A stretch of DNA of 32,000 nucleotides from Candidatus Hermodarchaeota archaeon (GCA_048886185.1 JBHLKY010000014.1:90001-122000); one strand, 5' to 3'; counted from the stretch's first letter, positions 14,999-32,000 are shown. Program-made: numbers and translations. The notes: generated by a model not told the origin, from the sequence alone.

Positions 14999-15280
14999 TT
15001 AGAGCTCACTTACCCTAATGAGCGATTTTATTGTTTGTCGTTCATCCATTGCAGTATAAGCTTCTGCAATATGGTCAAGATCCGTCTTTAGATCAAATAC
15101 TTTACTGGGATTGATCGTACCTTTGAGTACATCTTCTAGTAATTCCAGCAAGTACGCTCGTGTAGGGGCGGAACCACCACGCATACCAACATTCCCAAAA
15201 ATGTAGCATTTGCATCAATCTCAACATTATCGCTCTTCGATCACTATCTTACCCTTACCTCTGAATATTGCTACTTTCAT
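14999..15280 (-). pseudogene. Zinc-dependent alcohol dehydrogenase (MDR family) remnant with a large internal deletion
   Basis: ATG at 15280 overlaps the cupin stop (ATGA) and reads MKVAIFRGKGKIVIEER*, an MDR-type N-terminus. About 30 nt later the MDR C-terminus appears: GNVGMRGGSAPTRAYLLELLEDVLKGTINPSKVFDLKTDLDHIAEAYTAMDERQTIKSLI*. Confidence 0.85.
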
Positions 15281-15681
15281 TGATATTTCTCCTCTGTTAC
15301 TGGTCCGTACCATTCGGCATTTCCTAAATTAGGATTCGTACTTATTCCAACATGAACAAACCAACTATCTTTTGATGCCCCATGCCAATGTTTCACATTT
15401 GGTGGTATTTTCACAACATCTCCTTCCTGAAGCGATTGTGCTGGTTTTCCTTCTTCTTGATAATATCCTTTACCTCCTGTTACAAGAAGAATTTGACCTC
15501 CTGGATGTGAATGCCATTTAGTTCTTGCTTTTGGTTCAAAGGTTACATTGTATACTGGACAATTAAAGAAATCTTCTGTCACTAACATTTGAACCCACAC
15601 ATTCCCTGTGAAATAGTCGCTTGTAGCTTTTTCTCCTTTGGGAAATATCACACTTTTATTCAAATCATTTATTTCATTCAT
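15277..15681 (-). CDS. Cupin-domain protein, 3-His-1-Gln metal site
   Basis: FTGNVWV, NVTFEPKARTKWHSHPGGQILLVTGGKGYYQEEG, PPNVKHWHGA and EWYGPVT; AGGAG SD upstream. Confidence 0.92.
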   Translation of the reverse strand: MNEINDLNKSVIFPKGEKATSDYFTGNVWVQMLVTEDFFNCPVYNVTFEPKARTKWHSHPGGQILLVTGGKGYYQEEGKPAQSLQEGDVVKIPPNVKHWHGASKDSWFVHVGISTNPNLGNAEWYGPVTEEKYQ

Positions 15682-15811
15682 TTATTGATTCTCCTGAAAC
15701 AACTATATCTCCTTTACCCTTGAAAATTGCTGCTTTCATTCTTCACTCTAACTCAGGTATGTTTTGAATATTTGCTGGAACTAAAATACATCTGGTTTGA
15801 GCGATTCAACA

Positions 15812-16112
15812 TGATGGAAGAACTGACGTTAAGAAATCTAACAAATAGTGAAAAAATATTTTACATAAAAAAAATTGAGAATTATGAAACTAAAGAGGAG
15901 AGGTTAGAATATCTAAGAGCAATGAAATCTCAGCATAGGAATAATATGAGAATATGCGAAAAAAATCCCAGACATTTGTTAAAATGGAAAAACTAATTAC
16001 TCGTTTTATTGAAAAGATTGAAAATGAAGACTATCTGGATAAAGAGGAACTCGAACAATTCTTTGATCTAGTGATAGATATGGATCGCTCACTTGAAAAT
16101 AAAGAAAATTGA
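15812..16112 (+). pseudogene. Possible frameshifted small helical protein of unknown function
   Basis: The ORF-track frame ends at 15996, but a second frame is open from 15945 to TGA 16110-16112 (YENMRKKSQTFVKMEKLITRFIEKIENEDYLDKEELEQFFDLVIDMDRSLENKEN*). Both halves have the same charged helical composition. Confidence 0.35.
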
Positions 16113-16190
16113 GTAAGATACCATTAATTGTCAGTTGTTAATATTTTATTAATCCTTAAAAAAAATAACAAGGAGTTGGGGAAAATAAAA

Positions 16191-16550
16191 ATGCAAATCA
16201 TTATACAAACAAATGACTATACAATAGTTTTTGAGCTCAATAACAGCCAAGCTGCCAAAGAACTATATGAACAGTTACCTTTTACAATTACCGTTGAAAA
16301 TTACGGTAACAATGAAAAAATCTTTTATCCACCAAAAAAACTTCATACAACCGGTACACCTTTGGCAAATGCACAATTTGGAACGCTTGCATATTATGCG
16401 CTATGGGGAGACGTGGTAATGTTTTATGATAGTTTCGGTTCTGCAAGCGGTTTATATGAGTTGGGGAATGTCATTTCAGGCGGTGAGTATATCAAAAACA
16501 TGTCAGGCACGATACAGATCAAGAAAGTGATAAATAGAGATAAAATATGA
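16191..16550 (+). CDS. Cyclophilin-like fold protein (TM1367-like)
   Basis: FELNNSQAAKELYEQLP, YGNNEKIFYPP, GTLAYYALWGDVVMFY and SASGLYELG. The start is more likely ATG 16191 (AAGGAG/GGGG upstream) than 16128. Confidence 0.85.
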   Translation: MQIIIQTNDYTIVFELNNSQAAKELYEQLPFTITVENYGNNEKIFYPPKKLHTTGTPLANAQFGTLAYYALWGDVVMFYDSFGSASGLYELGNVISGGEYIKNMSGTIQIKKVINRDKI

Positions 16551-16797
16551 ACGCAGTAAAAGGAAGACAGACCAGAAGACCTGATGTTTTTGAGAACGGT
16601 ACGAAATCGACTCACCCAAATATAATGTCGTAAAAGATTAATTTTACGCCATTAATATTAGAATGAACTTGTTGGTCTCTTAACTTGAAACTTGAATATT
16701 TTGAACAGAACATTCATAAATTATATATTGTTGTGTGTTAAGCTAACGTGTTAATTTATTTTAAAAGTTTGATTTACTAACAGGATAGGGACTAAAA

Positions 16798-17183
16798 ATG
16801 TCATATACACAAGCCCCAAATATGACAGAAGAAGAAATAGAGAAGTTTCTAAAAACCGAAAAAATAGCTCGTTTTTGTAGTCTTAACAAAGATAATACAA
16901 TACATGCCACCCCAGTTTGGTTTAATTACGTAAATAAACAGATAATTAAGAAGCTCCTACCCAAGGAGTCATCCTTTATGGAGAGGTAGAACTAACATAT
17001 GATGATGCCCGATCAACGGCAATTTCAATCTTTGAACGATATATGACGAAAGAACAAGCTGAAACATCTGTAGATGGATTAATGAAAATAGGAACCTTTA
17101 TCATAATGAAAGTGAGTGTAAAGAACGTTGCTAGTTTCGATTATTCTAAAGATACTGCTTATCGTCAAGCAGTGACCTATTAA
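16798..17183 (+). pseudogene. Pyridoxamine-5'-phosphate-oxidase-like (FMN split barrel) gene with an internal deletion and frameshift
   Basis: N-terminal MTEEEIEKFLKTEKIARFCSLNKDNTIHATPVWF in frame 1. A different frame from 16950 reads EAPTQGVILYGEVEL...IFERYM...NVASFDYSKD...* (stop 17181-17183). Confidence 0.75.
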
Positions 17184-17840
17184 AAATTACAACTTAAATT
17201 AATGGATGAAGTTTAAGTTTTACATCCCAGTTTCCGACATAATCCCATAAATACTATATAAATGTATAATAAAGATATTCTCGTATGAAAGATAGATTTT
17301 ACGATGTTCAATTGTTGATATTTTATTGCTTGACAAACTTGTAATGCTGTTTAAATACTCCTATATTATTTAAATAAAGTTAATAAAATTCTTAAGGGAA
17401 AATTTCCTCTCTAATTTAATAATGTATCAAAATTAGTGTTCCTACTTCATTTCAATCAACTTTAATATTCATCTACTTTCTGATTGGTCATTTCCTTGGT
17501 TGAGAGAGGTTGTTCTTTTTGCAACTCGATGTGGTTTGAAATTTCATATCCTCGAAAAACCTCTTGTTTACCTAATGGATTAATGTCGATAAACTGTGGA
17601 GACCCAATCAGGATATTAAATTCAGAGTCAGATTTCAACAAAAATTCACTTGAAAAGAAGAGATATAAACCAAAAAGACTAGGATTTTCTCAATTAATAC
17701 AGATTTTAAAGAGTGAAATCATATAAGCTAAATTATTATTCAGATTCTTAGATAAATTATTTTCTCTAAAGAATTGCGATTCCGAATTCTAAAAAAATCC
17801 TATTTTATTAAGTAAGAATAATGTATGGTGAAGCATTCTA

Positions 17841-19067
17841 ATGAATACAGGATCTAAGAGAATACGGTACCTTTTCCTTGATAATATAAAGCTGCTTTTT
17901 ACTATTCTTGTGATTTTCTGGCATACGATGAATACTTATGCTGAAGTAGGTTGGTGGTACTATAAAGAGATTAATCCAATTGATCCTTTGAGTGATACAT
18001 TTTTTTTACTTTTAAGCTCAATTGGAGGTGTGTTTCAAACCTCACTCTTAGGATTATTCTTTTTATTAGGGGGTTATTTTACTCCTAACAGTTATGATCG
18101 AAAAGGCGTTCGTAACTTCTGGAAAGAAAGACTTATTCGTCTTGGTATCCCCCTCCTTTTATATATAGTAATAATTAATTCTATTATGATTTATGCCCTA
18201 TCCTTATTAAGAATTCCACCGTGGAGTACCACCCCAATGCTACAAGGAACTTTTCTAGATTATTTATTCAGTAGATTTCTATCGTGGGAAGATTTCATTG
18301 ACTTTTTAACATTTGCGGGGCCAATGTGGTTTCTTTTGGTTTTACTAATCTTTACTGCCGTTTATACTCTTTGGCGTCAGATAACCAAGTTAGACTTGGT
18401 ACAGCGAAAAATGCCAGAGGAACTTTTCATCCCAAGATACCCATTCTTACTCCTTTTAGCAATTGGTTTAGGATTTTTTACTTTTTTAGTTCGTATAGGT
18501 TTTTCAATTGACTTCCGTCCACTAGGAATACCTTGGGGTCAACTCACTCAGTATCTAATGATGTTCAGCATTGGTGTTATCTGTGTTAGGTATTTTTGGT
18601 TAGAAAAGATATCTGAAAAACATGTCAAAATCTGGTTAATTACATTAATAACCTCAATTGTGATAATTTATCTGGATTTTTTTATTGTACTGATAATGGA
18701 TGGAGACTTTAGTGAATTTTCAGGGGGGGCCAATTTACATGCTTTTTTATTTGCCTTGGTAGATAGTATTATGTGTATGGGAGTCATTTTTGTCTTAATT
18801 AAGGTTTTTTATGTAAAATTCAACAAGCAAGGGCTTATACTACAGAACCTATCTGCTAGTGCATACCATATGTACCTCGTTCATCCACCTGTCCTTGTCT
18901 TTATATCCCTTGGATTATCATTATTAGACCTTTTTCCCATTATTAAACTAGCCATTGTATTTCCCTTAACAGTCATCGTTTGCTATCTGTTAAGTCATTA
19001 TGTCCTCGAAAAAATTCATTTGAAAAAACCAGCAAGAGTTAATCAAAATAGTTTAGACCATTTATAA
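17841..19067 (+). CDS. Membrane acyltransferase family 3 (OpgC/MdoC/OafA-like)
   Basis: LDNIKLLFTILVIFWH, LGLFFLLGGYF, ERLIRLGIP, GPMWFLLVLLIF and SAYHMYLVHPP; about 10 TM segments. Confidence 0.9.
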   Translation: MNTGSKRIRYLFLDNIKLLFTILVIFWHTMNTYAEVGWWYYKEINPIDPLSDTFFLLLSSIGGVFQTSLLGLFFLLGGYFTPNSYDRKGVRNFWKERLIRLGIPLLLYIVIINSIMIYALSLLRIPPWSTTPMLQGTFLDYLFSRFLSWEDFIDFLTFAGPMWFLLVLLIFTAVYTLWRQITKLDLVQRKMPEELFIPRYPFLLLLAIGLGFFTFLVRIGFSIDFRPLGIPWGQLTQYLMMFSIGVICVRYFWLEKISEKHVKIWLITLITSIVIIYLDFFIVLIMDGDFSEFSGGANLHAFLFALVDSIMCMGVIFVLIKVFYVKFNKQGLILQNLSASAYHMYLVHPPVLVFISLGLSLLDLFPIIKLAIVFPLTVIVCYLLSHYVLEKIHLKKPARVNQNSLDHL

Positions 19068-19434
19068 TACTCCTAAAACAGGTATATCATTAAATATATT
19101 GTATTATTGATTGATACAAGCTTCCTGAATAAATAGCAGTATCTACGAGTATGCAAACCAATCCAACGTTATATCACATCAGAAATGAGAAATACAGCCA
19201 ATTAGTACAGCATCAAAATACTCCAATAGGTATTCTTCTACATTATCTTTAAGGAAGTATCTTGGACATATTTTCCTTTTTTATTTTCAAAATAGTCTTC
19301 AAGATGTGATTAAACATCAGTATTACTGCAAAAATCAAATATAACTGCCATTTGATGACACTTTATTGCTTCACTCATGAGTTTGAATGACTTAAAAAAA
19401 AATCTTCCATAAATCCTTCTATGTGCTTAAAAAT

Positions 19435-20415
19435 TTAGGTATTAGTAATGAGTCGAAGAAAGTCTCTTGTACCTGTTGCCAGACCTAATAAGAAAACTAC
19501 CCATAGTAGCCATTTCTGAATATCCTCTTTTTCAAAACCTCGAACTGCATAAATAAAGAATAAAACAACTACAAATTTTAAGATTAAGAAGGGCCAAGAT
19601 CCTAAAGGAGTATCAAACAGTAAAGCGGGTAAATAGTGCTTTTCCTGATAATTAAAGAATTCTATAGCTATGACCGTATTGAATGCATCAAACATTTGTG
19701 TTCCCATTGCTAAGACTTCTTCTTTTTGTACAATAGCGTCTGGAATATACTTTTGTGAAATACGAGTGGCTGTAATGTTAAACAATACCCCAAATATGCC
19801 TGATAAGATTAGAATAATTAAACCACCCCCAATATAATAAGGATCTGTTAACAAAAATACAATTGGCAGGAATAATATAACTTCAATTATAATTCCAATA
19901 GTTAAAAATGTTGTTCTCCAATCTGAAAATCGTTTAGTATAATTTAGGTATTCCTGAGAAATGAAAATCGAGGCGATTCCGACAGTCAAAGCTAGTAAAA
20001 TGGTTATGACATAAACATAAGGAGTAACAAAAATTCTAAGTTTGAAGATCTCATAGGGGGAGATGATTTTGTTTTGATCAGCAATGTCTTGCAATGCTCT
20101 TATCGTTGAACCAATGAAGATATATGGTAGTATAGAGACAAAAAATTGGGAATCCATTTGCACTGGTATAAAATACTCTTCTCCCCATCGTTCAACTCCT
20201 TTCTGATTTACACGAACAATTATTTTCCCAATCAGGAAGATAGCGAGAATCCCTAGGGTTGTATAAACTATTGTATTGTAGAAATTATATCCTTGTTCTA
20301 GGATGAAATAGGTTTCAATAAACTTAACTGGATTAGATATTTCCTGTAAAAAGGTTTGAATTGCCTTAAAGATTTTATCCAAAAGATCTTGGATAATATT
20401 TTGCTGTAGTGCCAT
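19435..20415 (-). CDS. DUF63-family archaeal membrane protein
   Basis: GYNFYNTIVY, PYIFIGSTIRALQD, FVTPYVY, QMFDAFNT..AIEFFNYQEKHYLP and LGLATGTRDFLR match the DUF63 pattern as I recall it. Confidence 0.75.
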   Translation of the reverse strand: MALQQNIIQDLLDKIFKAIQTFLQEISNPVKFIETYFILEQGYNFYNTIVYTTLGILAIFLIGKIIVRVNQKGVERWGEEYFIPVQMDSQFFVSILPYIFIGSTIRALQDIADQNKIISPYEIFKLRIFVTPYVYVITILLALTVGIASIFISQEYLNYTKRFSDWRTTFLTIGIIIEVILFLPIVFLLTDPYYIGGGLIILILSGIFGVLFNITATRISQKYIPDAIVQKEEVLAMGTQMFDAFNTVIAIEFFNYQEKHYLPALLFDTPLGSWPFLILKFVVVLFFIYAVRGFEKEDIQKWLLWVVFLLGLATGTRDFLRLITNT

Positions 20416-20511
20416 AATACTCTTACACCAACAGTTGATGAATTTTAATCTAAATAATTTTCGCCTTTAGATCTTCATCTGAATGTTGTTTACCACTTTT
20501 TCAACACTAAT

Positions 20512-21153
20512 CTACTTGGATATTTTGAGGAATTCTCGATTCATCACTATAACAAATCCTAAACCTATGAGAATAAGAATCAAATCTATACTGAAAATTG
20601 CTGTAACAAAAAAAGGAAATAAAGGATTTATCGTTGGTAATTGAGCTAGGGTTGGTTTAAATATTCCTAGAAAACCGAAAAAGTCAGTATAATCATTAAA
20701 TAATGTGATACTAATCGGAATAGCCGTTATTTTGGTGATTTTCATATTAACCAATAAAGGTAAGATAGCTATTGCTTGAATAAGCAGTAAAAAATGGCCA
20801 AGTATTACAATTTCTATATCAAGAGATCCAAAGTTTAGAATGATTAGATAGGTAAAAAATGCAGCACGAATACCTTGTATAAAAACAAAGAAATTGTAAT
20901 TTAAAAAACGTTGGTTATCAAATTGTAGGTATACTCCCAACAACAGTAAAGCGGCCATTGGACAATCAGGAATTAATACCCAGAAGATAGGAGAAAATTG
21001 GGGAAGACCAACTACATTGAAATAATATAAGAAGCCGATAAACGCGCCTAAGAAATTAGCTATCATTAATATTATTATCAAAGGTTTTGATGCCAAAAGT
21101 TTCAATTCAAACTCCTGAATTCGTAGTATGGAAGTATGCAATGAAAGTTTCAT
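20512..21153 (-). CDS. DUF1405-family membrane protein
   Basis: IANFLGAFIGFLYY...W.LIPDCP.AALL, GHFLL and NDYTDF, in a hydrophobic protein. Confidence 0.7.
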   Translation of the reverse strand: MKLSLHTSILRIQEFELKLLASKPLIIILMIANFLGAFIGFLYYFNVVGLPQFSPIFWVLIPDCPMAALLLLGVYLQFDNQRFLNYNFFVFIQGIRAAFFTYLIILNFGSLDIEIVILGHFLLLIQAIAILPLLVNMKITKITAIPISITLFNDYTDFFGFLGIFKPTLAQLPTINPLFPFFVTAIFSIDLILILIGLGFVIVMNREFLKISK

Positions 21154-21260: not shown

Positions 21261-22292
21261 TCAGGTTACATCTACGACCCCAATCTCTGTTAATCCAAAT
21301 ATTGCCTCATTTTCAGGAAGAAGTGGACTATCCACAATTCGAGCAATACGTCGTTCGCCCTTTGATTTTCGGAGGTAGACCCGTGTTTGAGCTGCATGGG
21401 CAACAATATGGCCTCCAACAGGATGGGTGGGATCACCAAAAAATTGGTCTGGTTTGGCATGAACTTGGTTTGTGACTATAACAGCTAGATTTCCGATCTC
21501 GGCTGCTCTCAGAATAGTATGAATATGTTGATTTAACTTTTGTTGTCGAGTAGCTAAGGTTCCTCGACCTACATACTCAGCTCTAAAGTGAGCAATCATT
21601 GAATCAACTACAAGTAATCTAATATTTTTAGTGGGCAGATAATCTTTAATCATTTTTTCTACTAGAACCATTTGATGATCAGAATTATGAGCACGTCCAT
21701 GTAAAATGTTTTCGAGCAATAAATCTTCATCTAAATCATCCTGCCAACGAGAAGCCATCGATAATACTCTTTCTGGGCGAAATGTTCCCTCGCTATCTAT
21801 ATAAACTACTCTTGGGTAGTTATCTCCTTCTCGTAGGCCACCCTTTTCACGAGGGAGTTGGACAGTCACACAAAGTTGATGGGCTAGCTGAGTTTTTCCA
21901 GTCCGAAATTCGCCAAAAAGCTCCGTAACGGTCCCTGTTTCTATTCCACCACCAAATAGTTCATCTAACTTCTGGCTACCTGTAGTAACTTTAGCCAATT
22001 CTTTACGTCTAGCCAACACGGATTTGGCAGTTTCAAAATCTATATCAAGTGCTTCTCTTGCAGCTTCAATTATTCTTTTTACCGTTTTTTCCCCCAAACT
22101 GGCAATTGAGGTTAATTCCCCAACAGAGACCGTAGCGATAGATTCTAATGTTGAGAATCCCGCTTCCACTAATTTCGCGGCCGTTGATGGCCCAATTCCG
22201 GGTAAATCAGTTATAGATGTCACAGCACTCTCTTTATTAACTTTTGTTTCAATCGAAGTATCAGTTTTCTCATTTTTTTTCTTTGGTGTCAT
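21261..22292 (-). CDS. radA: DNA repair and recombination protein RadA
   Basis: N-terminal HhH (DLPGIGPSTAAKL), Walker A GEFRTGKTQ, YIDSEGTFRPER, Walker B LLVVDS, FRAEYVGRGTLATRQQKL, TNQV and GGHIVAH. No intein. The start is likely ATG 22292 (GAGG upstream) rather than 22346. Confidence 0.98.
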   Translation of the reverse strand: MTPKKKNEKTDTSIETKVNKESAVTSITDLPGIGPSTAAKLVEAGFSTLESIATVSVGELTSIASLGEKTVKRIIEAAREALDIDFETAKSVLARRKELAKVTTGSQKLDELFGGGIETGTVTELFGEFRTGKTQLAHQLCVTVQLPREKGGLREGDNYPRVVYIDSEGTFRPERVLSMASRWQDDLDEDLLLENILHGRAHNSDHQMVLVEKMIKDYLPTKNIRLLVVDSMIAHFRAEYVGRGTLATRQQKLNQHIHTILRAAEIGNLAVIVTNQVHAKPDQFFGDPTHPVGGHIVAHAAQTRVYLRKSKGERRIARIVDSPLLPENEAIFGLTEIGVVDVT

Positions 22293-22586
22293 TATCTTAC
22301 CCGTCCTCGAGAGAGGTTCTCTCATAAGACTAATGAGAACTATCATTTTTTTGAACCCATGAACACCTTAAATCTTTTCTGCTTTTAAGGATTAAAGTGA
22401 AATTAGGAACATTATAAATGGATCAGGAGGCTCTATCTCTAATATCCTTTATGGCAAAATAGGCATAAGATTCCCTTCATCATTGTCACCAAAAAGCTCC
22501 TACGCCAAATTTAACTCCCAAAAACGAGTAATAGGCATTTATTCCCTCAATGTGAAATTACCTACCCTCAAGAAGTATATTTTTAC

Positions 22587-22602
22587 AAAAGGTATACCTT
22601 TT
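22587..22602. promoter_or_regulatory. Perfect 16-bp palindrome in the radA / pilus divergent intergenic region
   Basis: AAAAGGTATACCTTTT is its own reverse complement. Confidence 0.4.
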
Positions 22603-22712
22603 TTGGGGAATACAAAAATCCTTAAATCATTACATCTTTGATTATAAATCCCTGAGGTATGATTTATTTATTGAGATTGATGTTAAAAGAAAGTGATAGA
22701 AAGGGATCGAAC

Positions 22713-23606
22713 TTGAAGAAAGACTTTATTAGCCAATTAAAAAACCGTCGTGGAGTTTCTCCTGTTCTAGCGACTGTTATGATATTCGGTTTAATTATCA
22801 CTGGAGTCATGATCACTTTCGTTCAAGTTGTTCCATATATCCAACAGGCTCAAAGTGAGGAAGCGATAGCATCGGTACGGAATAGCTTTTTAGAGCTGGA
22901 TACTACTATAAAATCATTACTAAGTGAAAGTGGAGCGCCAGGAGGTTTTCGAACCATTCTATTCACTAAACCCTCCGGAGTCGTTCAATATGTTGAAGAT
23001 CGCTATTACATTTCCTTAAGATTACTTGATCAAGATAGTAATACAATATATAAAATACTGGATGAAAAGAAGATTGGAGTACTTGATTGGGTCTTCAATA
23101 GCCCTCGATCTGTCATTCCTAGAGGTACTACAAAATATTTAACTGGACCAGATCCCTATAGAAAACGAGAACCTGTTTTTTTAACAGGAACTTTTTCATC
23201 CACGGATTATCAAGACCTAACTAATTTAACATTAAGCCATCTTAATGACAAAAGGCATCATGTGACTCTCAATTACCGAATATCTATCTATTTAACAATT
23301 TCTACTCAACCAGAACCAGAAATTCGTTTTGAAGTCTTTTTAGTCTTAATTTCTTCAGATTTCGACTCATTTCATAGACAATATCAACAAATAACCATTC
23401 ATTCATATAACAATTTTTCCAGACCATATACTTTACCTGAAAATGACTCCATTGGGGCGATAGAATTAGTATGGGATAATATTAAAACTTCAGGGTCTAC
23501 AACCACATCCCTTTGGAGTACTCAATTGATTCAAGGATTTAATGTCCAATACTTTAATATTGTGGTACAAACACTGGTTTATGAAATAGGCCTCTCAATA
23601 TCTTAG
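22713..23606 (+). CDS. Archaeal type IV pilin-like protein with an archaellin/PibD-type class III signal peptide
   Basis: KNRRG|VSPVLATVMIFGLIITG (Gly at 22752-22754) followed by a hydrophobic helix and a soluble domain. Likely TTG start at 22713 (AAGGGA upstream); the ORF track starts at 22659. Confidence 0.85.
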   Translation: MKKDFISQLKNRRGVSPVLATVMIFGLIITGVMITFVQVVPYIQQAQSEEAIASVRNSFLELDTTIKSLLSESGAPGGFRTILFTKPSGVVQYVEDRYYISLRLLDQDSNTIYKILDEKKIGVLDWVFNSPRSVIPRGTTKYLTGPDPYRKREPVFLTGTFSSTDYQDLTNLTLSHLNDKRHHVTLNYRISIYLTISTQPEPEIRFEVFLVLISSDFDSFHRQYQQITIHSYNNFSRPYTLPENDSIGAIELVWDNIKTSGSTTTSLWSTQLIQGFNVQYFNIVVQTLVYEIGLSIS

Positions 23607-23629
23607 TGAAAATATGACTCTGGTCGATT

Positions 23630-24085
23630 GTGATGGCATCGCAATATATTACCTTTATGATTATCTTCATATTAGGTCTTAACTTGGTCATAATTACAAA
23701 CACAATGTTTTTGGGTTTGAATGATCAGTTTCAGGAGAATCTTGCAGAAGCTGAGATGATACAAATCTTAGATTTGATTCAGATGCAAATTATGCAAACA
23801 CTTCTTCTTCCTACAAAATTCAATCAGACAAGTATGCAAAAAATTGAATTACCAACCCTTTTGGGAAAAATGTTCAGATATACTATTGAAATTTCTAATT
23901 TAAGCAACAATCAGCTTATATTGCATGGTTTTTCCAATAATTTGAAGATTGATCAGGTGATAACTTTTTCTGTGGCCCCAAAGTACAATATTGAGATTTC
24001 TAAATCATCGTTTCAAAGTATAAACTCAATATTATCTTTATATATAGAGAAGAACTTGATTAACGTTATAATAAGCATATCTTAG
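23630..24085 (+). CDS. Pilin-like protein (N-terminal hydrophobic helix, long amphipathic helix, beta-rich C-terminus) without a visible basic leader
   Basis: QYITFMIIFILGLNLVIIT...AEAEMIQI...IELPTLLG..FRYTIEI, located in the pilus locus. Confidence 0.6.
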   Translation: MMASQYITFMIIFILGLNLVIITNTMFLGLNDQFQENLAEAEMIQILDLIQMQIMQTLLLPTKFNQTSMQKIELPTLLGKMFRYTIEISNLSNNQLILHGFSNNLKIDQVITFSVAPKYNIEISKSSFQSINSILSLYIEKNLINVIISIS

Positions 24086-24238
24086 ATCAAACAATCAATT
24101 AATATAGTAAAAAGTGCTCATTCACAATAGAAAAATCTAAAAAATTATGATCACTGAAAATTATTAAACTAGCAAAAGATCAAACACGAAAAAAAAATCA
24201 TAATTATTTTTAGGCTAAAAGTAAGGAGTAACAGATAA

Positions 24239-25747
24239 ATGGCAGAATCAAGCAGTCTAATTCGAGAAACATATCCTTTAATCCCCCCATTTAGTTATGC
24301 GTTGGTTGCAACTGATCCAGAAACCAAACAAACTAAATATACTGTTGTTGAAGTTCCACTAAGTACAAAAGAGAAAGATATATTGGATATGATAAAAAAT
24401 ATTCTCGAAGAAGAATTAGATGTAGATTTTAATGTACTTAAAAATCCTGAGATAGCACGTGATTACCTCCGATCTAAAGTAATTAGGATAGCTAAAGATT
24501 ATGGGCTAAAAATAGATGAAAAGACATTCGATAAGATTAATTACCACATTACTCGTGATTTTGTTGGATTCGGTCCAATAGATGCAATGTTGAAAGATCA
24601 TAATGTTGAAGATATCTCCTGTGATGGTGTTGGAATTCCTGTCTATATTTGGCATCGAAAGTTTGAAAGTATTCAAACAAATGTTAAGTTTGAGGAGGAG
24701 GACTTATTAAATGCCTTTATCATCAAATTAGCTCAACGAGCTGGACGACATATCAGTGTAGCCAGACCTCTACTTGATGCTGCATTACCAGATGGTTCTC
24801 GCCTTCAATTAACATATGGAAGAGAAGTTACTCAACGAGGAAGTACATTCACAATACGAAAATTCCGCTCTGATCCGTTAACAATCACTGATATGGTTAT
24901 TTTTAATACCATTGACGAAGATTTAGCTGCATTCTTATGGTACGTTTTGGAAAATAGGAATTCAGTTGTTATTTCAGGGGGAACAGCAGCAGGAAAAACT
25001 TCTTTGCTTAATAGTTTGGCTATGTTCATTAGACCAGGAATGAAAATCGTTTCCATCGAAGACACAGCAGAACTTCATCTTCCTCATGAGAATTGGATCC
25101 CTGCCGTGGCTCGTGAAGGTTATGGCGGACGTGAAGCTGATGGTTCTCGAAGAGGCGAAGTATCAATGTACGATCTCCTCCGTGCAGCCCTTCGGCAAAG
25201 ACCAGATTATCTTTTTGTGGGAGAAGTACGAGGCGCAGAAGCATACAATCTTTTTCAAGCAATGGCTACTGGCCACACTGGAATGGGAACAATACATGGT
25301 GACAGTGTAACTGGAACTATTAGACGATTAGAGAATGAACCAATGAATATTCCTCGAACACTAATTCAAACATTGAACTTTGTTCTTGTCCTTCGAAAAG
25401 TGCGTCGAGGAGACAAACAGGTTCGACGAGTAATTGAATGTACAGAAATTGTAGGAATTGACCCTGTAACTACTGAATTGATTACGAATAAAGTCTTTGG
25501 ATGGAATGCACGTGAGGATGCTTTTATCAATTATGGACGATCCTATGCACTTGAAGGAATTCAGGAAGCGCAAGGATTAACTGAAGCACAAGTATTTGAT
25601 GAGCTGGAACGGCGTAAAACAATTTTAAGATGGATGGTAAAAAAGAAGCTGGCTCATTTTACCCAAGTTTCTGAAGTAGTGAACAGTTATTATCAGAATG
25701 CACTTGAAACTGTTGATCGAGCAAAACGTGAATTAAAAGCTATTTAA
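24239..25747 (+). CDS. Type IV pilus / T2SS assembly ATPase (archaeal PilB/ArlI-like)
   Basis: EDISCDG, LDAALPDGSRLQ, TFTIRKF, Walker A GGTAAGKTS, Asp box SIEDTAE, LRQRPDY, Walker B VGEVRG and His box TGH...TIHG. Confidence 0.96.
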   Translation: MAESSSLIRETYPLIPPFSYALVATDPETKQTKYTVVEVPLSTKEKDILDMIKNILEEELDVDFNVLKNPEIARDYLRSKVIRIAKDYGLKIDEKTFDKINYHITRDFVGFGPIDAMLKDHNVEDISCDGVGIPVYIWHRKFESIQTNVKFEEEDLLNAFIIKLAQRAGRHISVARPLLDAALPDGSRLQLTYGREVTQRGSTFTIRKFRSDPLTITDMVIFNTIDEDLAAFLWYVLENRNSVVISGGTAAGKTSLLNSLAMFIRPGMKIVSIEDTAELHLPHENWIPAVAREGYGGREADGSRRGEVSMYDLLRAALRQRPDYLFVGEVRGAEAYNLFQAMATGHTGMGTIHGDSVTGTIRRLENEPMNIPRTLIQTLNFVLVLRKVRRGDKQVRRVIECTEIVGIDPVTTELITNKVFGWNAREDAFINYGRSYALEGIQEAQGLTEAQVFDELERRKTILRWMVKKKLAHFTQVSEVVNSYYQNALETVDRAKRELKAI

Positions 25748-25773
25748 GGAAGAATCGTTTGGAGTGTTTATTT

Positions 25774-26682
25774 GTGAGTAAGGTCATTAGAAGGGTCGGT
25801 TATCTCAGGTTTGGTAGATTATTAGAATCTTGGATTGAAAAGGGACGATTTGAAAGACTCAATAAAAGCCTGAAACGAGCAGGGATGGATATTTCAATCC
25901 GAGCTTATCTTGGGAGTGCAATTTTTAGTTCTATTCTTATTGGATTCTTATCATTTTTCGGGACAATTATTGGAAGTATTGTGCTTTTTCAAATTGCTGA
26001 TCCTACAATGCACTTACAAAGTTTCTTTATGCAACTTATTTTGATTGGACTGATTGTTGGAGTGCTTTTTTTCATCATAACATATGTACCATTCTTATAC
26101 TGGCCCCAAATGAAAGCTGCTGATCGTAAAATATTAATGGAGTCTGGTTTACCATCAACAGCATCGTATCTCTCTGCAATGTCAAGTTCAGGTGTTCCCC
26201 CTAATAGACTATTTTTTTCACTCGCAGGAGAAGCATCTGTTGCTCCTGAAATTTCCAAAGAGAGTAAAAGAATAACACGAGACATTCAGATTTTTGGGTA
26301 TGATATTCTAAAAGCTTTACGAACCGCCAGTGAAAGATCTCCCTCAGAAAGATTCTCCAAGTTTTTAGATGGAATGTCAGCTACTATCACAAGTGGAGGG
26401 GATCTAACTTTCTATCTTAGTGCTGAAGCTAAAGCCCTAATGAAATTAAAAGAGGAAGAAACTAAAGAATTTATTGATCAATTAGGGGTACTTGCTGAAA
26501 TTTTTATGATTATAGGAGTAGTTGCTCCCTTATTCTTTGTAGTAATAATAGCAATTCTAGCTGTCATTTCCCCAGAAACAATAATTGGAACGGTCATAAT
26601 GCTGCTTTTGACGTACTTAATTATGCCTATTCTATTAATGATAATGATTTTATTGATCTCAACTATTTCACGAGAAGTTTAG
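25774..26682 (+). CDS. Type IV pilus membrane platform protein (PilC/TadC/ArlJ-like, T2SSF domain)
   Basis: LPSTASYLSAMSSSG, RDIQIFGYDILKAL, SPSERFSKFLDGM...SGGDL..YL and C-terminal TM helices. Likely GTG start at 25774. Confidence 0.9.
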   Translation: MSKVIRRVGYLRFGRLLESWIEKGRFERLNKSLKRAGMDISIRAYLGSAIFSSILIGFLSFFGTIIGSIVLFQIADPTMHLQSFFMQLILIGLIVGVLFFIITYVPFLYWPQMKAADRKILMESGLPSTASYLSAMSSSGVPPNRLFFSLAGEASVAPEISKESKRITRDIQIFGYDILKALRTASERSPSERFSKFLDGMSATITSGGDLTFYLSAEAKALMKLKEEETKEFIDQLGVLAEIFMIIGVVAPLFFVVIIAILAVISPETIIGTVIMLLLTYLIMPILLMIMILLISTISREV

Positions 26683-26702
26683 ACGTCAAGAGGTTTAGAG
26701 TA

Positions 26703-27689
26703 ATGAGAAAACTGTCACCAAAACTCGAACAACGTATCTGGATTCTCTCAATATTTCTCTTCATAATTACAGCAGGAATTGCCTTATATTTTTACATACC
26801 CGTCATTGAACATATATTTCCAGTAACTAGCCCTTCTGATTTAGATCCCGAAGAATTGGAAAATTATCTTCATTCTGTGAGTGAAATCGTCAGAGATCCA
26901 ATCATTGGATTTTTTGACATCATAGATATAACAACAATATCTATTTTCACGCTGATTCTCATCCCAGCTTGGGCCTATCGCTCAGATCAAAGATGGCGAG
27001 ACAATATTGATGATAATATTCCCTCTTTATTACGTGAAATTTCTGATGCTCAAAAAACTGGTCTTCCATTACCAAGAGCAATTATGTCAGCAAGCAAGCA
27101 TAATTACGGCGCCTTGACGCCTGAATTGAAAAAAATGGCAGCTAAAATTAGTTGGGGGATTCCCTTCAGCAAATCCTTACAAAGTTTGACGCAAACAGCA
27201 GATACACCTATGATGAAACGAACATCTCTACTAATATTAGAAGCAGAGCGTTCTGGCGGGGCTATTGAAGACGTTTTTGAATCGGCTCACAAGCATGTGT
27301 CTGAAGTACTCGGATTAAAAAGAGAACGCCTTGGATCTATGAAGCCTTTTACTTGGATCATCTTCGCTTCCTTTATTGTCTTCTCCCTTGTAATGATTAT
27401 TCTACTTATTTCCTTTTTCCAAACATTAGCTGTCCAAATGGTAGATGCTGTTGCAGAAGGACAAGACCCAACTGCAGGATTACCATTTAACCTCGCTGGA
27501 TTACAGTTGATTTTTTTCCACTTAATGGTGATTGAAGCCATTTTTGCAGGTCTTATTGCAGGGAAAATGGGTCAAGGTAATTCAAAGCTTGGATTGCAAT
27601 ATTCTTGTATACTTCTAGCTATCTGCTATCTAATCTTTAAATTTACAATAACAGATATCATTTCACAAATATTTTCATTATTTGTATAA
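26703..27689 (+). CDS. Second type IV pilus membrane platform protein (T2SSF domain)
   Basis: IPSLLREISDAQKTGLPL..AI, YGALTPELKKM...ISWG and AERSGGAIEDV, plus C-terminal GLIAGKM...G. Confidence 0.9.
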   Translation: MRKLSPKLEQRIWILSIFLFIITAGIALYFYIPVIEHIFPVTSPSDLDPEELENYLHSVSEIVRDPIIGFFDIIDITTISIFTLILIPAWAYRSDQRWRDNIDDNIPSLLREISDAQKTGLPLPRAIMSASKHNYGALTPELKKMAAKISWGIPFSKSLQSLTQTADTPMMKRTSLLILEAERSGGAIEDVFESAHKHVSEVLGLKRERLGSMKPFTWIIFASFIVFSLVMIILLISFFQTLAVQMVDAVAEGQDPTAGLPFNLAGLQLIFFHLMVIEAIFAGLIAGKMGQGNSKLGLQYSCILLAICYLIFKFTITDIISQIFSLFV

Positions 27690-27711
27690 TAGTAATCAGA
27701 GGTTTAAAGTC

Positions 27712-28167
27712 ATGGGTAAAGAAGAAAAGATGCTTCAAGAGTTATTAGACAAAGTATCTACTCTAGAAGATAAACTTACTAATATGGAGTTTTTGATGGT
27801 ACAGGGCATGGGAACAGGGGGAGTAACTCCTATATCTCCAACGATGATGCCCTCTTCTACTCCAAAAACTGGCCCTGTTGAGATTGATTTGGCTCCTCTT
27901 GAAAATAGAATCTCTGAAATTGAAAATAATATCTCAGAAGTTATGAATAGGATTAATAGTTTAGCAGAGTTAACATCAGGATTAAAAACTGAAAAAACTC
28001 AGAAAGCTGACGAATTGATAACTCAAGCTACTTCTTTATTAGAAAAAGGCCTCCAGCTGACCGAATTAGAAACAACAATGCTTGAATTGAAAGATCGTAT
28101 TCAAGAGATAGTTATCCAACTTGAGGTTGCCAATGTTGGTTCTTCTACTGAGGATACTAATTCCTAG
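27712..28167 (+). CDS. Soluble coiled-coil protein of unknown function in the pilus operon
   Basis: Heptad segments LQELLDKVSTLEDKL and LENRISEIENNISEVMNRINSL separated by a G/P/T/S linker. Likely start ATG 27712 (GAGGT upstream). Confidence 0.75.
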   Translation: MGKEEKMLQELLDKVSTLEDKLTNMEFLMVQGMGTGGVTPISPTMMPSSTPKTGPVEIDLAPLENRISEIENNISEVMNRINSLAELTSGLKTEKTQKADELITQATSLLEKGLQLTELETTMLELKDRIQEIVIQLEVANVGSSTEDTNS

Positions 28168-28203
28168 TATGTTTAAATAGGAAATTAACAAAAGTGCACT
28201 GAA

Positions 28204-29364
28204 ATGTTTTTTTCAAGCTTTAAAAGAAGACGCCGTGGACAGATAAGAGCAATTGATTTCATGGTCAGTCTTTTTCTCTTTATACTTATGTTATCCCAAT
28301 TAATACTTATCATTTTTAATGTTCAATCTAGTATAAAGACTAGTACCATAAGAACCCTAGCTTATGAGGAATTTGACATTTTTGGTAGGCAAATCCTTTT
28401 TGAGGAAGGAGATTTAAACTGGGGTTATCGTCAACAACTTCCTTCGTCATTTGGACTTGCAGATTCCAATTCGCAGTCTTATCTGAGTTTAGATGGGGCA
28501 AAAATAGCCCGCCTTGTTACTCGTACTCCTTTGGAAATATATCTTGTTTCAGGATTCTACATGTATGATTATAAAACTCTTAAGGAAGCCATGAGTATAT
28601 CAGGTAAATATGACTTTCAATTGGGATTTTATCCCTTACTAAACTCAGAAATCTCTGTTTCAGATACAAATTTTGCTCAAGTTACCGTCACTAATTTTTA
28701 CAACACTCCTATTTCTAATGCTCGTGTTAATTTCTTTACCATTGATTTGACCAATGGAGAAGTGATTTCAGAAGGATCAACTTTAACGGACTCAAACGGG
28801 GAGACTGCACGTCAATTATCAAATCCTACCTTGAATATCCCAAATGGGGAGCATTTCGTCTTTATTATCGTTGAAAAAGGGCCTCTTTGGGGTATGAATT
28901 GGGGTTTTAATGATCCTGCCTCTGATGAGGTTTTCATTGGCTCATCCCTAAAAAATGCTATTTGGGGAGGAGGAATTAATTCATCCAGCCTATTGGTATC
29001 AGATAAACTGGGAGAGACGCCTGAAAACCATTTTATATCTATAATATATCAGGATAGTACATTAACTTATTCTAATAAAACGATAAACCTAAATAAGGCT
29101 GATGATGGGAATGAGACAATCACTATCCCCAATGAAGGCTTAGCTGCCTTTTTTAGTATTGCTAGAAATACAAATAATGAATATCATGTTGGAATAGGTT
29201 CATATCCTGCAATATTAGATCGTGATTCGGATAGTGGAGTATTTTATCATATCTTTGGAGATCTAACTGAAGGTAAAAGAGTTAAATCAATGCTATCAAA
29301 ACTCTATCCCATTATTGTCAGGGGAACTTTGATGGGTTGTCAATTAACCTTATGGAGCGAATAA
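28204..29364 (+). CDS. Minor pilin-like protein with an RG|Q class III signal peptide and an Ig-like domain
   Basis: KRRRRG|QIRAIDFMVSLFLF (Gly at 28237-28239); EEGDLNWG..FGLA; VTVTNFYNTPISNARV...TLTDSNGE (prealbumin/Ig-like pattern). Confidence 0.8.
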   Translation: MFFSSFKRRRRGQIRAIDFMVSLFLFILMLSQLILIIFNVQSSIKTSTIRTLAYEEFDIFGRQILFEEGDLNWGYRQQLPSSFGLADSNSQSYLSLDGAKIARLVTRTPLEIYLVSGFYMYDYKTLKEAMSISGKYDFQLGFYPLLNSEISVSDTNFAQVTVTNFYNTPISNARVNFFTIDLTNGEVISEGSTLTDSNGETARQLSNPTLNIPNGEHFVFIIVEKGPLWGMNWGFNDPASDEVFIGSSLKNAIWGGGINSSSLLVSDKLGETPENHFISIIYQDSTLTYSNKTINLNKADDGNETITIPNEGLAAFFSIARNTNNEYHVGIGSYPAILDRDSDSGVFYHIFGDLTEGKRVKSMLSKLYPIIVRGTLMGCQLTLWSE

Positions 29365-29368
29365 AAAG

Positions 29369-29881
29369 GTGAAAAAATGCCATAAAAGCGTCCATAGGGG
29401 ACAGCTTCAAATTGCAGAAACACTTGTTTCAGTATCTTTAATGTTAGTTCTCGCTATTCTATTGATTGGTGCTACAAATCAGCTAATGTCGTCATATTCA
29501 AATCCAACCAGTCTGGATCAGACAGCAACAGACATTATGATAGCTGCAGATGAGGCAGGGTTATTAAGACCTGTCATATATCTTTATGGTGACTCTAAAT
29601 ATCAGGTGGAGTATTCTTCCTATAGAAATCTGCTTGATGAATACATTTCTACTATAATTTCTGATAATGTTGACTACGCATTAGTTGCTCATGAAATTAT
29701 AAATGGTACAATTAAACTCGATTATTTCAGCCCTATTGGTTCCTCAACAGCCATTGTTGCACTCCAACAAAGAGGAGAGGCTGTAGTAGCGAACTACCAT
29801 TTAGGTTCCTTTACTTCAGCTACTTTTGGTCAGTATTTTTCTCAATTTCTTGTACAATTATATTTGTGGGAGAAATTCTAG
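29369..29881 (+). CDS. Minor pilin-like protein with an RG|Q class III signal peptide
   Basis: HRG|QLQIAETLVSVSLML (Gly at 29399-29401); LDQTATDIMIAADEAGLL; C-terminal VQLYLW. Confidence 0.8.
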   Translation: MKKCHKSVHRGQLQIAETLVSVSLMLVLAILLIGATNQLMSSYSNPTSLDQTATDIMIAADEAGLLRPVIYLYGDSKYQVEYSSYRNLLDEYISTIISDNVDYALVAHEIINGTIKLDYFSPIGSSTAIVALQQRGEAVVANYHLGSFTSATFGQYFSQFLVQLYLWEKF

Positions 29882-30601
29882 ATGAAGTTACCAGGATTGT
29901 TATACTCGAAAGGTCACAGAGGTCAAATGTTTATCTTGGCAACAATGCTGATAGCAGTCTATGTTGTCATGATGACAGCTGCTCTGATGAATCTTGGAGC
30001 TAATCGAATGGAGTTTGATAGGGAGACGTTAAGAGAACCTTATTTAGATTCAAAACGTGAAATTCAAAATTTCTTAGAATTAATTTTAGCAGAGCATAGT
30101 AAAAATGAAACCACAATAGTAAGTTCTAGTATTGCACAAAATAAGATTAAAGAATTCTTAATGGATATGAGGGAGGTTTATATCTCACGTGGGGTGAACT
30201 TAGAAGTGAATTTTAATACTGATAACTTCAATCTAATAGCAACACATTCTCCATATGCAAATGTCTCAAATGTAGGAGTTTATACTAGCGAGATTTATGC
30301 TGAATTTCGGTTAAAGTTAAGTTCAGTGTCATCCTCATTTATTATTGAAGAATATTTTTCAGTTATCTTTATTGGTCGTGTAGAGATCCAAGGCAGCAGT
30401 GTTCTGGTTCAGCAATCAAAAGGAGACCAGTTTGAATTTATTGAAGCAGCTTCAGTCTATATTTTTAATGCTACTGATAAAATTACTCCCTCTATTCGTC
30501 TAGATCGTACTGGTATCTATAATTTTGAAGATTTAATTGATCTGAACAATATAGGAATCCTTAATGTCACCTTGATGAATGGAGTACAAATTTTTTCGTG
30601 A
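29882..30601 (+). CDS. Minor pilin-like protein with an RG|Q class III signal peptide
   Basis: KGHRG|QMFILATMLIAVY (Gly at 29921-29923); starts immediately after the preceding stop codon. Confidence 0.78.
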   Translation: MKLPGLLYSKGHRGQMFILATMLIAVYVVMMTAALMNLGANRMEFDRETLREPYLDSKREIQNFLELILAEHSKNETTIVSSSIAQNKIKEFLMDMREVYISRGVNLEVNFNTDNFNLIATHSPYANVSNVGVYTSEIYAEFRLKLSSVSSSFIIEEYFSVIFIGRVEIQGSSVLVQQSKGDQFEFIEAASVYIFNATDKITPSIRLDRTGIYNFEDLIDLNNIGILNVTLMNGVQIFS

Positions 30602-30607
30602 GAAGAA

Positions 30608-32000
30608 ATGATTGAGAAAGAGTTTCAGGAGTACATCAAAAATCTGAAAAAGGATCTTGAAACTCAAGTTCAACTAGCCACACAAGCGCGAGGCTGTAAA
30701 TTAGATCCTCAAACCTCAATAGAGTCCAAACTTACGTTTAATTCAAGAGCAAAGATAGCTTCAATTCTGAAGATACCAAAATTAGAGGACTATCTCCCAA
30801 GAAATCTTTCTCATCATGAAAATCCTCTCCTTTTGGCAGCTGATATTGCCAAACAGATTGTTAATGGCCGTTTTGTGAAGAAATCTCGTGAAAATCTTAT
30901 ATTACTTGCATTACACAGTTCACTTGTTATTATCAGCCAAGGATTGATATCTGTTCCTCAAGAAAGCATCCCAAAAATCACAATTGGCTCTAAATCAAAT
31001 CATTTAACCATTTACTTCTCAAATACGATACGATATGCTACCGGAGAGACTATTGGTTTAATAATGTTAATTGCAGATTATATTAGGCAGGTTTTACATT
31101 TAAATCGATTTAATCCTTCACCCGATCTCATAAATAGGTATGTTGAAGAAATAGAAATTTATACAGCAATGAATGAGCATTTTTTAAATTTACGAATAGA
31201 TTTATTAAAATTTTTAGTTCAAAATATTGGAATCGAAATATCTGGAGAAGCATTCGAACGAATTGAGGTTCGGAGATATAGGAACTTACCTAATTTAACA
31301 AATAAATTGAGGATGGGAATGTGTGTTGCCTTTGAAAAAGTGATTGAAAGCATTAATTCAATTGCTTCTATTCGTTTTAAATCAGGCATCCCTGAATGGG
31401 ATTGGTTAAAAGGCCCCTTTGAAGCAATTAAAAGGGAAAAACACGAATTTGGGCTAAGGGAAGTACGCGGAACTCAACCTTTACTCTCAAAATCTAGGAA
31501 ACCTGGGGGGTTCAGATTAAGATATGGCTTTTCACGCAACACAAGCCAAGGCGCAGCAGGAATTCATCCTGTTACAATGTATCTTTCAGAAATGCTCTCT
31601 CCAGGCACAAGTATTGCGATAGATTTTATGGATCGGCCGATTACGGTTTTTCCTGTTTCAACCTTAACAGGTCCTTTAGTTGAATTAAAAGATGGTTCTA
31701 GCGAAAGGATTGAATCTATAAAGAGAATTCGTGAAATAGAGGACAAAATAGCTCAGATTTGGGAGATGGGAGACATTTTACTCTCTCCGGATGACATTCC
31801 AGCAACAGAAACTATTGAATTATCTGCTTGGACCGAAGAATGGTGGAGTCAAGAAATCAAACTTTCAATTGCCTCAACAAATTTATCAATTGAAACATTG
31901 GCAACCAGCTTGAATATTTCCTTTAAAAAGTTAGAAAGATTACTACGAGAACCCACACATTATCATCCCTCTCCAGAAACAGCTATTAAACTGAGTAATA
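30608..32000 (+). CDS. polC: DNA polymerase D large subunit (DP2) homologue, strongly divergent; N-terminal 464 aa, runs off the right edge
   Basis: Not in the ORF track. The frame is open from ATG 30608 to the edge. Retains ARG.KLDP, ADYIR, NRYVEEIEIY, EISGE, EWDWL, KPGGFRLRYGFSRNT, AAGIHPVTM, GPLVELKDGS, GDILL and EEWW in DP2 order, but several normally invariant motifs are altered. Confidence 0.88.
   Translation, partial: MIEKEFQEYIKNLKKDLETQVQLATQARGCKLDPQTSIESKLTFNSRAKIASILKIPKLEDYLPRNLSHHENPLLLAADIAKQIVNGRFVKKSRENLILLALHSSLVIISQGLISVPQESIPKITIGSKSNHLTIYFSNTIRYATGETIGLIMLIADYIRQVLHLNRFNPSPDLINRYVEEIEIYTAMNEHFLNLRIDLLKFLVQNIGIEISGEAFERIEVRRYRNLPNLTNKLRMGMCVAFEKVIESINSIASIRFKSGIPEWDWLKGPFEAIKREKHEFGLREVRGTQPLLSKSRKPGGFRLRYGFSRNTSQGAAGIHPVTMYLSEMLSPGTSIAIDFMDRPITVFPVSTLTGPLVELKDGSSERIESIKRIREIEDKIAQIWEMGDILLSPDDIPATETIELSAWTEEWWSQEIKLSIASTNLSIETLATSLNISFKKLERLLREPTHYHPSPETAIKLSN

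Follow-up and report, generated by a model that had tools for sequence, protein, structure and literature searches.

A type IV pilus operon between radA and a DP2 homologue with a degraded catalytic motif in one genus of Hodarchaeales

The Epd pilus of Methanococcus, which belongs to 'system 1' of the type IV filaments (T4F), and the haloarchaeal PilB/PilC loci each encode an ATPase, a two-gene platform, several class III prepilin-like proteins and accessory genes in a single operon (PMC13705601). The two-gene platform is the hallmark of the Epd-like system 1, and the Ups pili of Sulfolobales are archaeal type IV pili tied to DNA exchange and recombinational repair; a survey found ordered T4F loci to be rare in Asgard archaea (PMC13705601). 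Here we describe a 32,000-nucleotide (nt) stretch of archaeal DNA, referred to below as the window (G000:C14:90001-122000), from a genome of 4.84 Mb that is 96% complete. In the window, the recombinase gene radA stands back to back with a nine-gene type IV pilus operon, and this operon runs directly into a homologue of DP2, the large subunit of DNA polymerase D (PolD). The original prediction, drawn from this stretch alone, had proposed a module for DNA uptake and recombination. Our preferred reading, to which we assign a probability of about 0.7, is that a lineage-specific rearrangement brought together a pilus operon of adhesion type, a core recombinase and a dead polymerase of scaffold type, and that the three most likely work separately.

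Judged from the names carried by loci of the same genus (Ca. Hodarchaeota, Ca. Hodarchaeum mangrovi and Heimdallarchaeota B3_Heim), the source is a Hodarchaeales archaeon of the class Heimdallarchaeia (Asgard). Of the known archaea, Hodarchaeales are among those most closely related to eukaryotes, and their replication machinery is taken as a snapshot of eukaryotic polymerase origins. The class survey covered 83 Heimdallarchaeia genomes, including families f3-f7 of the class and a sister family of the same order. The pilus-DP2 junction, the DP2 motif and the signal peptides were read in detail in 15 species of the genus (this one and 14 sisters), and 19 genus genomes were assessable for adjacency of radA to the pilus operon and 18 for adjacency of the pilus operon to DP2.

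Gene content of the pilus locus

A listing of the open reading frames bears out the layout and gaps originally proposed, with radA on the minus strand, nine plus-strand genes spanning 22659-30601 and DP2 starting at 30608. The features are as follows.

21261-22346, minus strand: radA, identified by Rad51 (Pfam), HHH_5 and NCBIfam RadA matches; copy 'A' of three recent paralogues
22347-22658, no strand: divergent promoter region, defined by five-species alignment and motif search
22659-23606, plus strand: pilin-like protein 1, with class III signal peptide ..NRRG↓VSPVLATVMIFGL and a weak DUF7289 match
23630-24085, plus strand: small membrane protein of 151 amino acids (aa), with orthologues in all genus loci and N-terminus MASQYITF
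24239-25747, plus strand: pilus assembly ATPase (PilB/TadA/ArlI superfamily), identified by T2SSE
25759-26682, plus strand: platform protein, N-terminal half, with a single T2SSF domain
26703-27689, plus strand: platform protein, C-terminal half, with a single T2SSF domain
27682-28167 (conserved start 27712), plus strand: coiled-coil accessory protein, start taken from orthologue N-termini
28204-29364, plus strand: large pilin-like protein of 386 aa, with signal peptide KRRRRG↓QIRAIDF and an Ig-like region
29369-29881, plus strand: pilin-like protein of 170 aa, with signal peptide HRG↓QLQIAETLVSV
29882-30601, plus strand: pilin-like protein of 239 aa, the last pilus gene, with signal peptide HRG↓QMFILATMLIAVY
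30602-30607, plus strand: junction GAAGAA, 6 nt between the pilin stop and the DP2 ATG
30608-32000, plus strand: DP2, its N-terminal 464 codons inside the window, with PolC_DP2_N, central and catalytic domains

The intergenic gaps within the operon are, in order, 23, 153, 11, 20, -8, 36, 4 and 0 nt, followed by 6 nt to DP2. Three starts were revised from orthologue N-termini. The radA start conserved across species is ATG 22292, which makes 22293-22346 probably the 5' untranslated region of the gene. Pilin-like protein 1 probably begins at TTG 22713, because nucleotide conservation in a five-species alignment extends up to this codon, and its leader would then be 14 aa long. The coiled-coil gene starts at 27712 (conserved MGKEEKML), and the 8-nt overlap in front of it becomes a 22-nt gap. 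By choice of starts, the spacer between radA and the first pilin-like gene is 312-420 nt; the upper end of the ~370-420 bp claimed earlier stands, and its lower end drops to 312 nt. The entire DP2 gene encodes 1107 aa and ends at window-equivalent position 33931, 1931 nt past the window. Scans of the window for tRNA genes and Rfam families gave no RNA gene.

The pilus ATPase gene is preceded by an AAGGAG Shine-Dalgarno sequence, and its product matches T2SSE at E=2.4e-38 (132 bits against a cut-off of 24.9 bits), with a weak match to PilB3_C and a score of 428 bits against the FlaI model, under the 550-bit cut-off. T2SSF domains are present in the products of both platform genes (E=1.5e-16 for 25759-26682 and E=3.5e-16 for 26703-27689; about 60 bits each against a cut-off of 25.2). 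The match of the first protein lies in the N-terminal half of the models for ArlJ and UpsF, and that of the second in their C-terminal half (UpsF positions 285-474 of 484); on these domain matches, the platform protein is split over two genes. The halves score 54.6 and 50.2 bits against the UpsF NCBIfam equivalog, which has a cut-off of 400 bits. Because the ATPase misses the FlaI cut-off and the platform halves fall far short of that of UpsF, we read the locus as something other than an archaellum or a Ups pilus. In Pfam and NCBIfam, none of its proteins matched a family named ArlF, ArlG or ArlH, and this profile search agrees with the original observation that archaellum-specific arlF/G/H genes are lacking here.

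Four of the five pilin-like genes encode class III signal peptides, with motifs RG↓VSPVLAT, RRG↓QIRA, RG↓QLQIAE and RG↓QMFILAT (arrows, predicted cleavage sites); a hydrophobic helix follows each, and all are kept in the 15 species. The small membrane protein (23630-24085) has no canonical class III motif, and Pfam/NCBIfam searches gave no family match for it. Pilin-like protein 1 matches DUF7289 below the cut-off in three orthologues (16-25 bits), and equally weak, below-cut-off matches connect the 170-aa protein to DUF7262 and the 239-aa protein to DUF7261, in each case here and in one orthologue. The 386-aa protein, a candidate tip or adhesin subunit, has a weak Big_1 match and falls among archaeal hypothetical clusters in the ESM Atlas (score 0.94, TM 0.72), with DUF7287 at 0.76. 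The DUF7289, DUF7262 and DUF7261 matches are reproducible although below cut-off, and together with the DUF7287 lead from the Atlas they tentatively tie the pilin-like genes to archaeal pilus gene sets. Homologues of the coiled-coil gene occupy the equivalent position in family f3 loci. The pilus locus itself contains no class III signal peptidase gene; a prepilin peptidase (Peptidase_A24, PibD/EppA type) is represented by a single match in the genome, at C8:21195-21554 outside the locus, and this match is marginal (27.7 against 26.5 bits).

The ATPase is 91-97% identical within the genus and 54-66% identical across the class, and it is matched in 78 of the 83 Heimdallarchaeia genomes. Ordered pilus loci surround it in all genus loci read and in families f3 and f5, and these loci stand beside the rarity in Asgard archaea reported by the survey (PMC13705601). 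Cultured Hodarchaeales bear unexplained filaments of 15-25 nm (bioRxiv 10.1101/2025.02.26.640444), and the pilus locus, with its large pilin-like subunits (315-386 aa), is a candidate source of these structures. The most likely job of the nine-gene T4F operon would be the formation of an adhesion-type surface filament.

A DP2 with a degraded motif, its junction with the operon, and radA

DP2 is the sole match to the PolD large subunit in the genome, and every other genome of the genus likewise carries one copy. Its domains PF03833, PF24844 and PF24846 (PolC_DP2_N, central and catalytic) all score above their cut-offs, and the protein aligns end to end with DP2 of P. abyssi (PDB 6HMS_B, E=6.6e-161), in which D956 and D958 are invariant and essential (PMC4996933). 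The catalytic motif here reads RNCNGDIDS, with Asn872 aligned to Asp956 and Asp874 to Asp958. The corresponding motifs of the 14 sister species are RNCNGD(I/V)DS, RNCSGNIDS, RSCNGATDS, RSCNGANDS and RSCNGVSDS. All 15 species have Asn or Ser in place of Asp956; Asp958 is missing from five of them and kept in the present one. Families f3-f7 retain KRRNCD(G/S)DED. We read the DP2 of this genus as catalytically inactivated, a polymerase-derived, non-catalytic protein; its earlier description as polymerase-derived is borne out. The motif in the sister-family genome G023 is RTANGDIDS, and the inactivation therefore predates both the genus and the pilus junction.

That DP2 is inactivated in this lineage is already known. 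Fig. 7 and Suppl. Fig. S16 of Kazlauskas et al. (2020, NAR, PMC7544198) present the Heimdall_B3/LC3 group as having no active DP2 and as carrying group B10 of the family B polymerases (PolB). The inactive PolD described there comes from the same lineage, since B3_Heim is among the same-genus genomes, and it is likewise a full-length inactive DP2 accompanied by a retained DP1 and extra PolB genes. Relative to those parts of that paper, which are silent on genomic context, the new elements are the likely coupling to the pilus operon, the restriction of this arrangement to a single genus, the additional disappearance of Asp958 from five of the 15 species and an estimate of the ratio of nonsynonymous to synonymous substitution rates (dN/dS).

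This ratio is 0.14-0.25 for DP2 versus 0.02-0.05 for the pilus ATPase, and the DP2 reading frame is uninterrupted in 14 of 15 species, the remaining metagenome-assembled genome having a single TGA. DP2 is under purifying selection and is not decaying. The Cys and His residues of three zinc-finger-like motifs (C630/633/642/645, C655/H659/C666/C669 and C1028/1031/1043/1046) are invariant, and the C-terminal stretch 1001-1107 is one of the most strongly conserved parts of the protein. In canonical DP2, the C-terminal domain binds DP1. The genome encodes a DP1 of 541 aa, whose gene adjoins an Orc1/Cdc6-like gene (locus L009, G000:C3:94993-98628; 1345-2970 on the minus strand and 69-1316 on the plus strand, respectively), as well as 3-4 PolB genes. 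The most economical and most likely role for the dead DP2 is that of a non-catalytic replisome scaffold beside DP1, to which its binding is predicted, since PolB group B10 has presumably taken over synthesis.

Some further features of these polymerase subunits were seen in passing. The final seven residues of DP2 (..PRPTTLV; L008 3900-3931) are, at a pair identity of 0.81, its most conserved stretch within the genus. The phosphoesterase motifs of DP1 appear largely intact by eye, with GNHD reading GEHD. Many DP2 frames of Heimdallarchaeia are 1350-1750 aa long (for example G028:C1:1971716-1974547 and G038:C1:2163891-2166728), and DP2 matches are split at about residue 175 of the catalytic fragment used as query, in the catalytic loop. 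Such split long frames, which are frequent in families f3-f7, are consistent with an intein at a known DP2 insertion site.

Inspection of the junction shows that 0-8 nt separate the last pilin stop from the DP2 ATG in all 15 species. Several of the closest species carry GAGG in the gap, and in one species the stop and start overlap as ATGA. A 238-nt AT-rich spacer with T-runs follows DP2. Because this short, Shine-Dalgarno-bearing junction is kept in all 15 species, co-expression is likely, and DP2 is likely to be co-transcribed and translationally coupled with the pilus operon. Here and in several relatives, the last pilin-like gene contains a TATA-like element, CCTTAAT, at a distance of 35-52 nt ahead of the DP2 ATG. 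We considered it as an internal DP2 promoter and set it aside, as it overlies the conserved codons G-I-L-N-V-T and is broken by synonymous changes in some species (CTCAAT); we regard such a promoter as unlikely, although a real contender.

At the other end of the operon, the region between radA and the first pilin-like gene contains two TATA-like CCTTAAATC boxes in identical orientation, at 22366-22374 on the radA side and 22620-22628 on the pilin side, each situated ~20-30 nt from the respective start. In the five-species alignment the boxes are conserved and the indel-rich spacer between them is not, differing in length by >200 nt. The pilin-side box is kept in 10 of the 12 sister loci scanned. 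Across the genome, CCTTAAATC occurs at 66 sites against ~60 expected, which is no enrichment, and only ~8 of these lie upstream of open reading frames. The genes concerned encode a response regulator, a Cdc48-like AAA ATPase, an AMP-binding enzyme and hypothetical proteins, which make no coherent set. The sequence was accordingly dropped as a candidate site for a shared regulator, being unenriched and lying ahead of genes that are not a repair or pilus set. We read CCTTAAATC as a TATA-box variant, and the best explanation for radA is divergent transcription from a TATA-like promoter of its own. The proposal that pilus, recombinase and DP2 are co-regulated is supported in one half: the conserved junction makes co-expression of the pilus genes and DP2 likely, whereas radA has its own TATA-like box and no regulon was found.

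The RadA encoded in the window matches Rad51 in Pfam at E=1.6e-89 and HHH_5 at 56 bits, exceeds both NCBIfam RadA equivalog cut-offs (446 versus 259 bits and 437 versus 361 bits) and has GEFRTGKT as Walker A and LLVVDS as Walker B. Five RadA-family genes are present in the genome (C14:111264-112292, C1:129071-130090, C13:19843-20835, C2:22438-23400 and C14:24564-25457). In a tree, copies A (the pilus-adjacent gene), B and C go back to a triplication confined to the genus, and the branch of A is the shortest; the three are mutually 61-65% identical, and all have the HhH domain and intact Walker motifs. Multiple RadA copies in a close relative of eukaryotes (cf. Rad51 and Dmc1) may deserve separate attention.

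On the far side of radA, ~8 kb of the window (13141-21153, from a phosphoribosyltransferase gene to radA) are missing at this position in the closest species. This segment holds genes for an S15 X-Pro dipeptidyl-peptidase, a cupin, a cyclophilin-like protein, an acyltransferase, a DUF63 protein and a DUF1405 protein; the dipeptidyl-peptidase gene has 44% GC versus ~33% nearby. The segment is probably variable or acquired.

Distribution of the arrangement and its possible explanations

Within the genus, radA adjoins the pilus operon in 19 of 19 assessable genomes, which upholds the divergent pairing first noted in the window, and the pilus operon adjoins DP2 in 18 of 18. Past DP2, the conserved block extends to a CBS gene and an NFACT gene. 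To the left of radA, synteny is absent even at 97% ATPase identity. One genome (G015) looked like an exception in which radA was missing beside the pilus, but a 100-N scaffold gap lies exactly there and the genome is not assessable. Conservation of the radA-pilus-DP2 order beyond close relatives had been named beforehand as a test of the proposed module. Outside the genus, the linkage of pilus and DP2 was found in none of the ~55 other Heimdallarchaeia genomes with both genes. The two are on separate contigs throughout, except in two single-contig genomes in which DP2 and the pilus ATPase are 0.83-0.87 Mb apart.

The sister family already carries the dead DP2. In one of its genomes the gene follows that of a beta-eliminating lyase, and in the other it faces a zinc-ribbon gene, with no pilus genes beside it; the first pilin gene of this family faces a ribosomal-protein cluster. 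A zinc-ribbon gene behind the ATPase in the sister family was considered as a homologue of the gene downstream of DP2 and rejected, as only the ribbon matches. Two genes from the dead DP2 of this family, a gene for a Rad50/SMC-like ATPase of 1001 aa was also seen (L115, G023:C598, 4406-7411, plus strand).

In family f3, at least 14 genomes from four genera encode a canonical-type RadA at a distance of 9-14 kb from the pilus ATPase. One f3 locus was read, and genes for a coiled-coil/MarR-like protein, a GT2 glycosyltransferase, a hypothetical protein and a Ras-like GTPase lie in mixed orientation between radA and the pilus genes, which are themselves rearranged. The GTPase gene (L029, G028, 5757-6299, minus strand) belongs to the Ras family of small GTPases (Pfam Ras, E=3.6e-51). 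In families f4 and f6 radA and the pilus ATPase never share a contig. The f5 genomes that were checked have weaker radA relatives, and these are on contigs other than that of the ATPase. The proximity in f3 looks like a remnant of old synteny. Among the 61 non-Asgard loci around the most similar ATPases, which total 955 kb, radA is within 10 kb in none and DP2 in one. Among the Heimdallarchaeia surveyed, DP2 neighbours the pilus, and radA directly adjoins it, only in this genus.

These observations suggest a sequence of events. DP2 lost its first catalytic Asp and kept its fold, most likely serving as a non-catalytic replisome scaffold. A rearrangement in the ancestor of the genus would then have set it right behind the last pilin-like gene, such that it is now probably read off the pilus transcript through the short Shine-Dalgarno-bearing junction, while the canonical-looking RadA copy would be expressed from its own divergent promoter. 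Most likely, radA, the pilus and DP2 share no DNA-uptake function. Several points weigh against this account. The proximity of radA and pilus in at least 14 f3 genomes exceeds what a single-genus accident would give. The tight junction is kept though DP2 is only 50-77% identical across the genus, which is compatible with selection for co-expression. Both divergent promoters carry the identical 9-mer CCTTAAATC, though it is unenriched genome-wide. Ced-type or other archaeal DNA importers fell outside the search and are thus not excluded, and the scaffold and adhesion roles are inferred.

The module of the original prediction, in which the pilus takes up or exchanges DNA, DP2 receives or threads this DNA at the cytoplasmic face and RadA recombines it under common regulation, can draw on the conserved and coupled DP2 junction, on the unbroken adjacency of radA in the genus together with its proximity in f3, on the shared promoter 9-mer and on the precedents of bacterial competence pili and of Ups pili in DNA exchange (PMC13705601). 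We nevertheless consider it improbable. The linkage of DP2 to the pilus is absent outside the genus, even in the sister family with the same dead DP2, and the inactivation of DP2 came before the linkage. The spacer between the promoters is indel-rich, the other genes carrying the 9-mer form no coherent set, and the platform halves fall far under the UpsF cut-off. The zinc-finger-like motifs and conserved C-terminal domain of DP2 point to a replisome role. ComEC and DprA gave no match in the 96%-complete genome, although 10-11 control genomes gave matches (Ced, HerA and VirB4 were not searched), so that the lack of recognizable ComEC and DprA, first noted at the locus, extends to the genome. 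A DNA-uptake function stays pure inference, and nothing found links the pilus to DNA. Still less probable is the specific form in which the dead DP2 was recruited as a co-expressed, cytoplasmic DNA-handling partner of the pilus and, with RadA, constitutes an Asgard-specific import or exchange system without a ComEC or Ced homologue. Were the DNA-uptake reading true, it would represent a new kind of competence system, which the present evidence makes unlikely.

Mere neighbourhood would account for the locus if DP2 had a promoter within the 3' end of the last pilin-like gene, in which case there would be three independent units, an illusory co-expression and an order frozen by descent. The CCTTAAT element in several relatives fits this explanation, as do the frequency of internal promoters in archaeal operons and the inclusion of the unrelated CBS and NFACT genes in the conserved block. 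The position of the element on conserved codons and its synonymous disruption argue in the other direction, and a gap of 0-8 nt, a GAGG and an ATGA overlap are typical of genes internal to operons; we regard this explanation as unlikely, although a real contender. The radA-pilus pair could alternatively be an ancient selected linkage in Heimdallarchaeia, serving for example damage-induced aggregation followed by recombination as in the Ups system, with DP2 as a late passenger. Direct adjacency in this genus and the 9-14 kb spacing across four f3 genera would agree with such a linkage, and the remaining neighbourhood is not shared. Four unrelated genes of mixed orientation intervene in the f3 locus read, however, the sister-family pilin gene faces a ribosomal-protein cluster, and no linkage of radA and the ATPase was seen in f4, f6 or the f5 genomes checked. 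The prior for any single ancestral adjacency is also ~1%, many genes would seem 'interesting' beside a pilus, and we hold this to be the least probable of the explanations considered.

Under the preferred reading of rearrangement and separate functions, the new point is that a dead DP2 without a promoter context of its own is, throughout a genus, likely to be read off a surface-filament operon. This is a useful warning when expression is studied, and it gives experimenters a cheap handle, as one transcript would report on pilus and DP2 alike.

Comparison with known systems

Relative to the Epd pilus and other system 1 loci, the locus has no dedicated signal peptidase, and no short Epd-type major pilin (arCOG06620) was recognized in it. 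The haloarchaeal PilB/PilC loci carry DUF7261, DUF7262, DUF7287 and DUF7289 pilin-like genes (PMC13705601), whereas the matches to DUF7289, DUF7262 and DUF7261 obtained here are weak and below the Pfam cut-offs. The locus differs from the Ups and Ced systems in that its platform halves reach 50-55 bits where UpsF demands 400; no UpsX or Ced genes were recognized here, and no search was aimed at Ced, HerA or VirB4. Bacterial competence, with its Com/Pil pilus, ComEA, ComEC, DprA and RecA, has in common with this locus a pilus and a recombinase of the RecA family, but ComEC and DprA were not found in this genome. We know of no bacterial competence system that uses a polymerase-derived component.

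For DP2 the closest parallel is eukaryotic. The C-terminal half of Pol epsilon is likewise a dead polymerase module retained as a scaffold (PMC7544198, PMC12680538). The two differ in that Pol epsilon has a family B fold and DP2 a family D fold, for which DP1 binding is a prediction only. As in the Pol epsilon scaffold, the DP2 of this genus combines a dead fold held under selection with intact zinc-finger-like motifs and an intact C-terminal domain.

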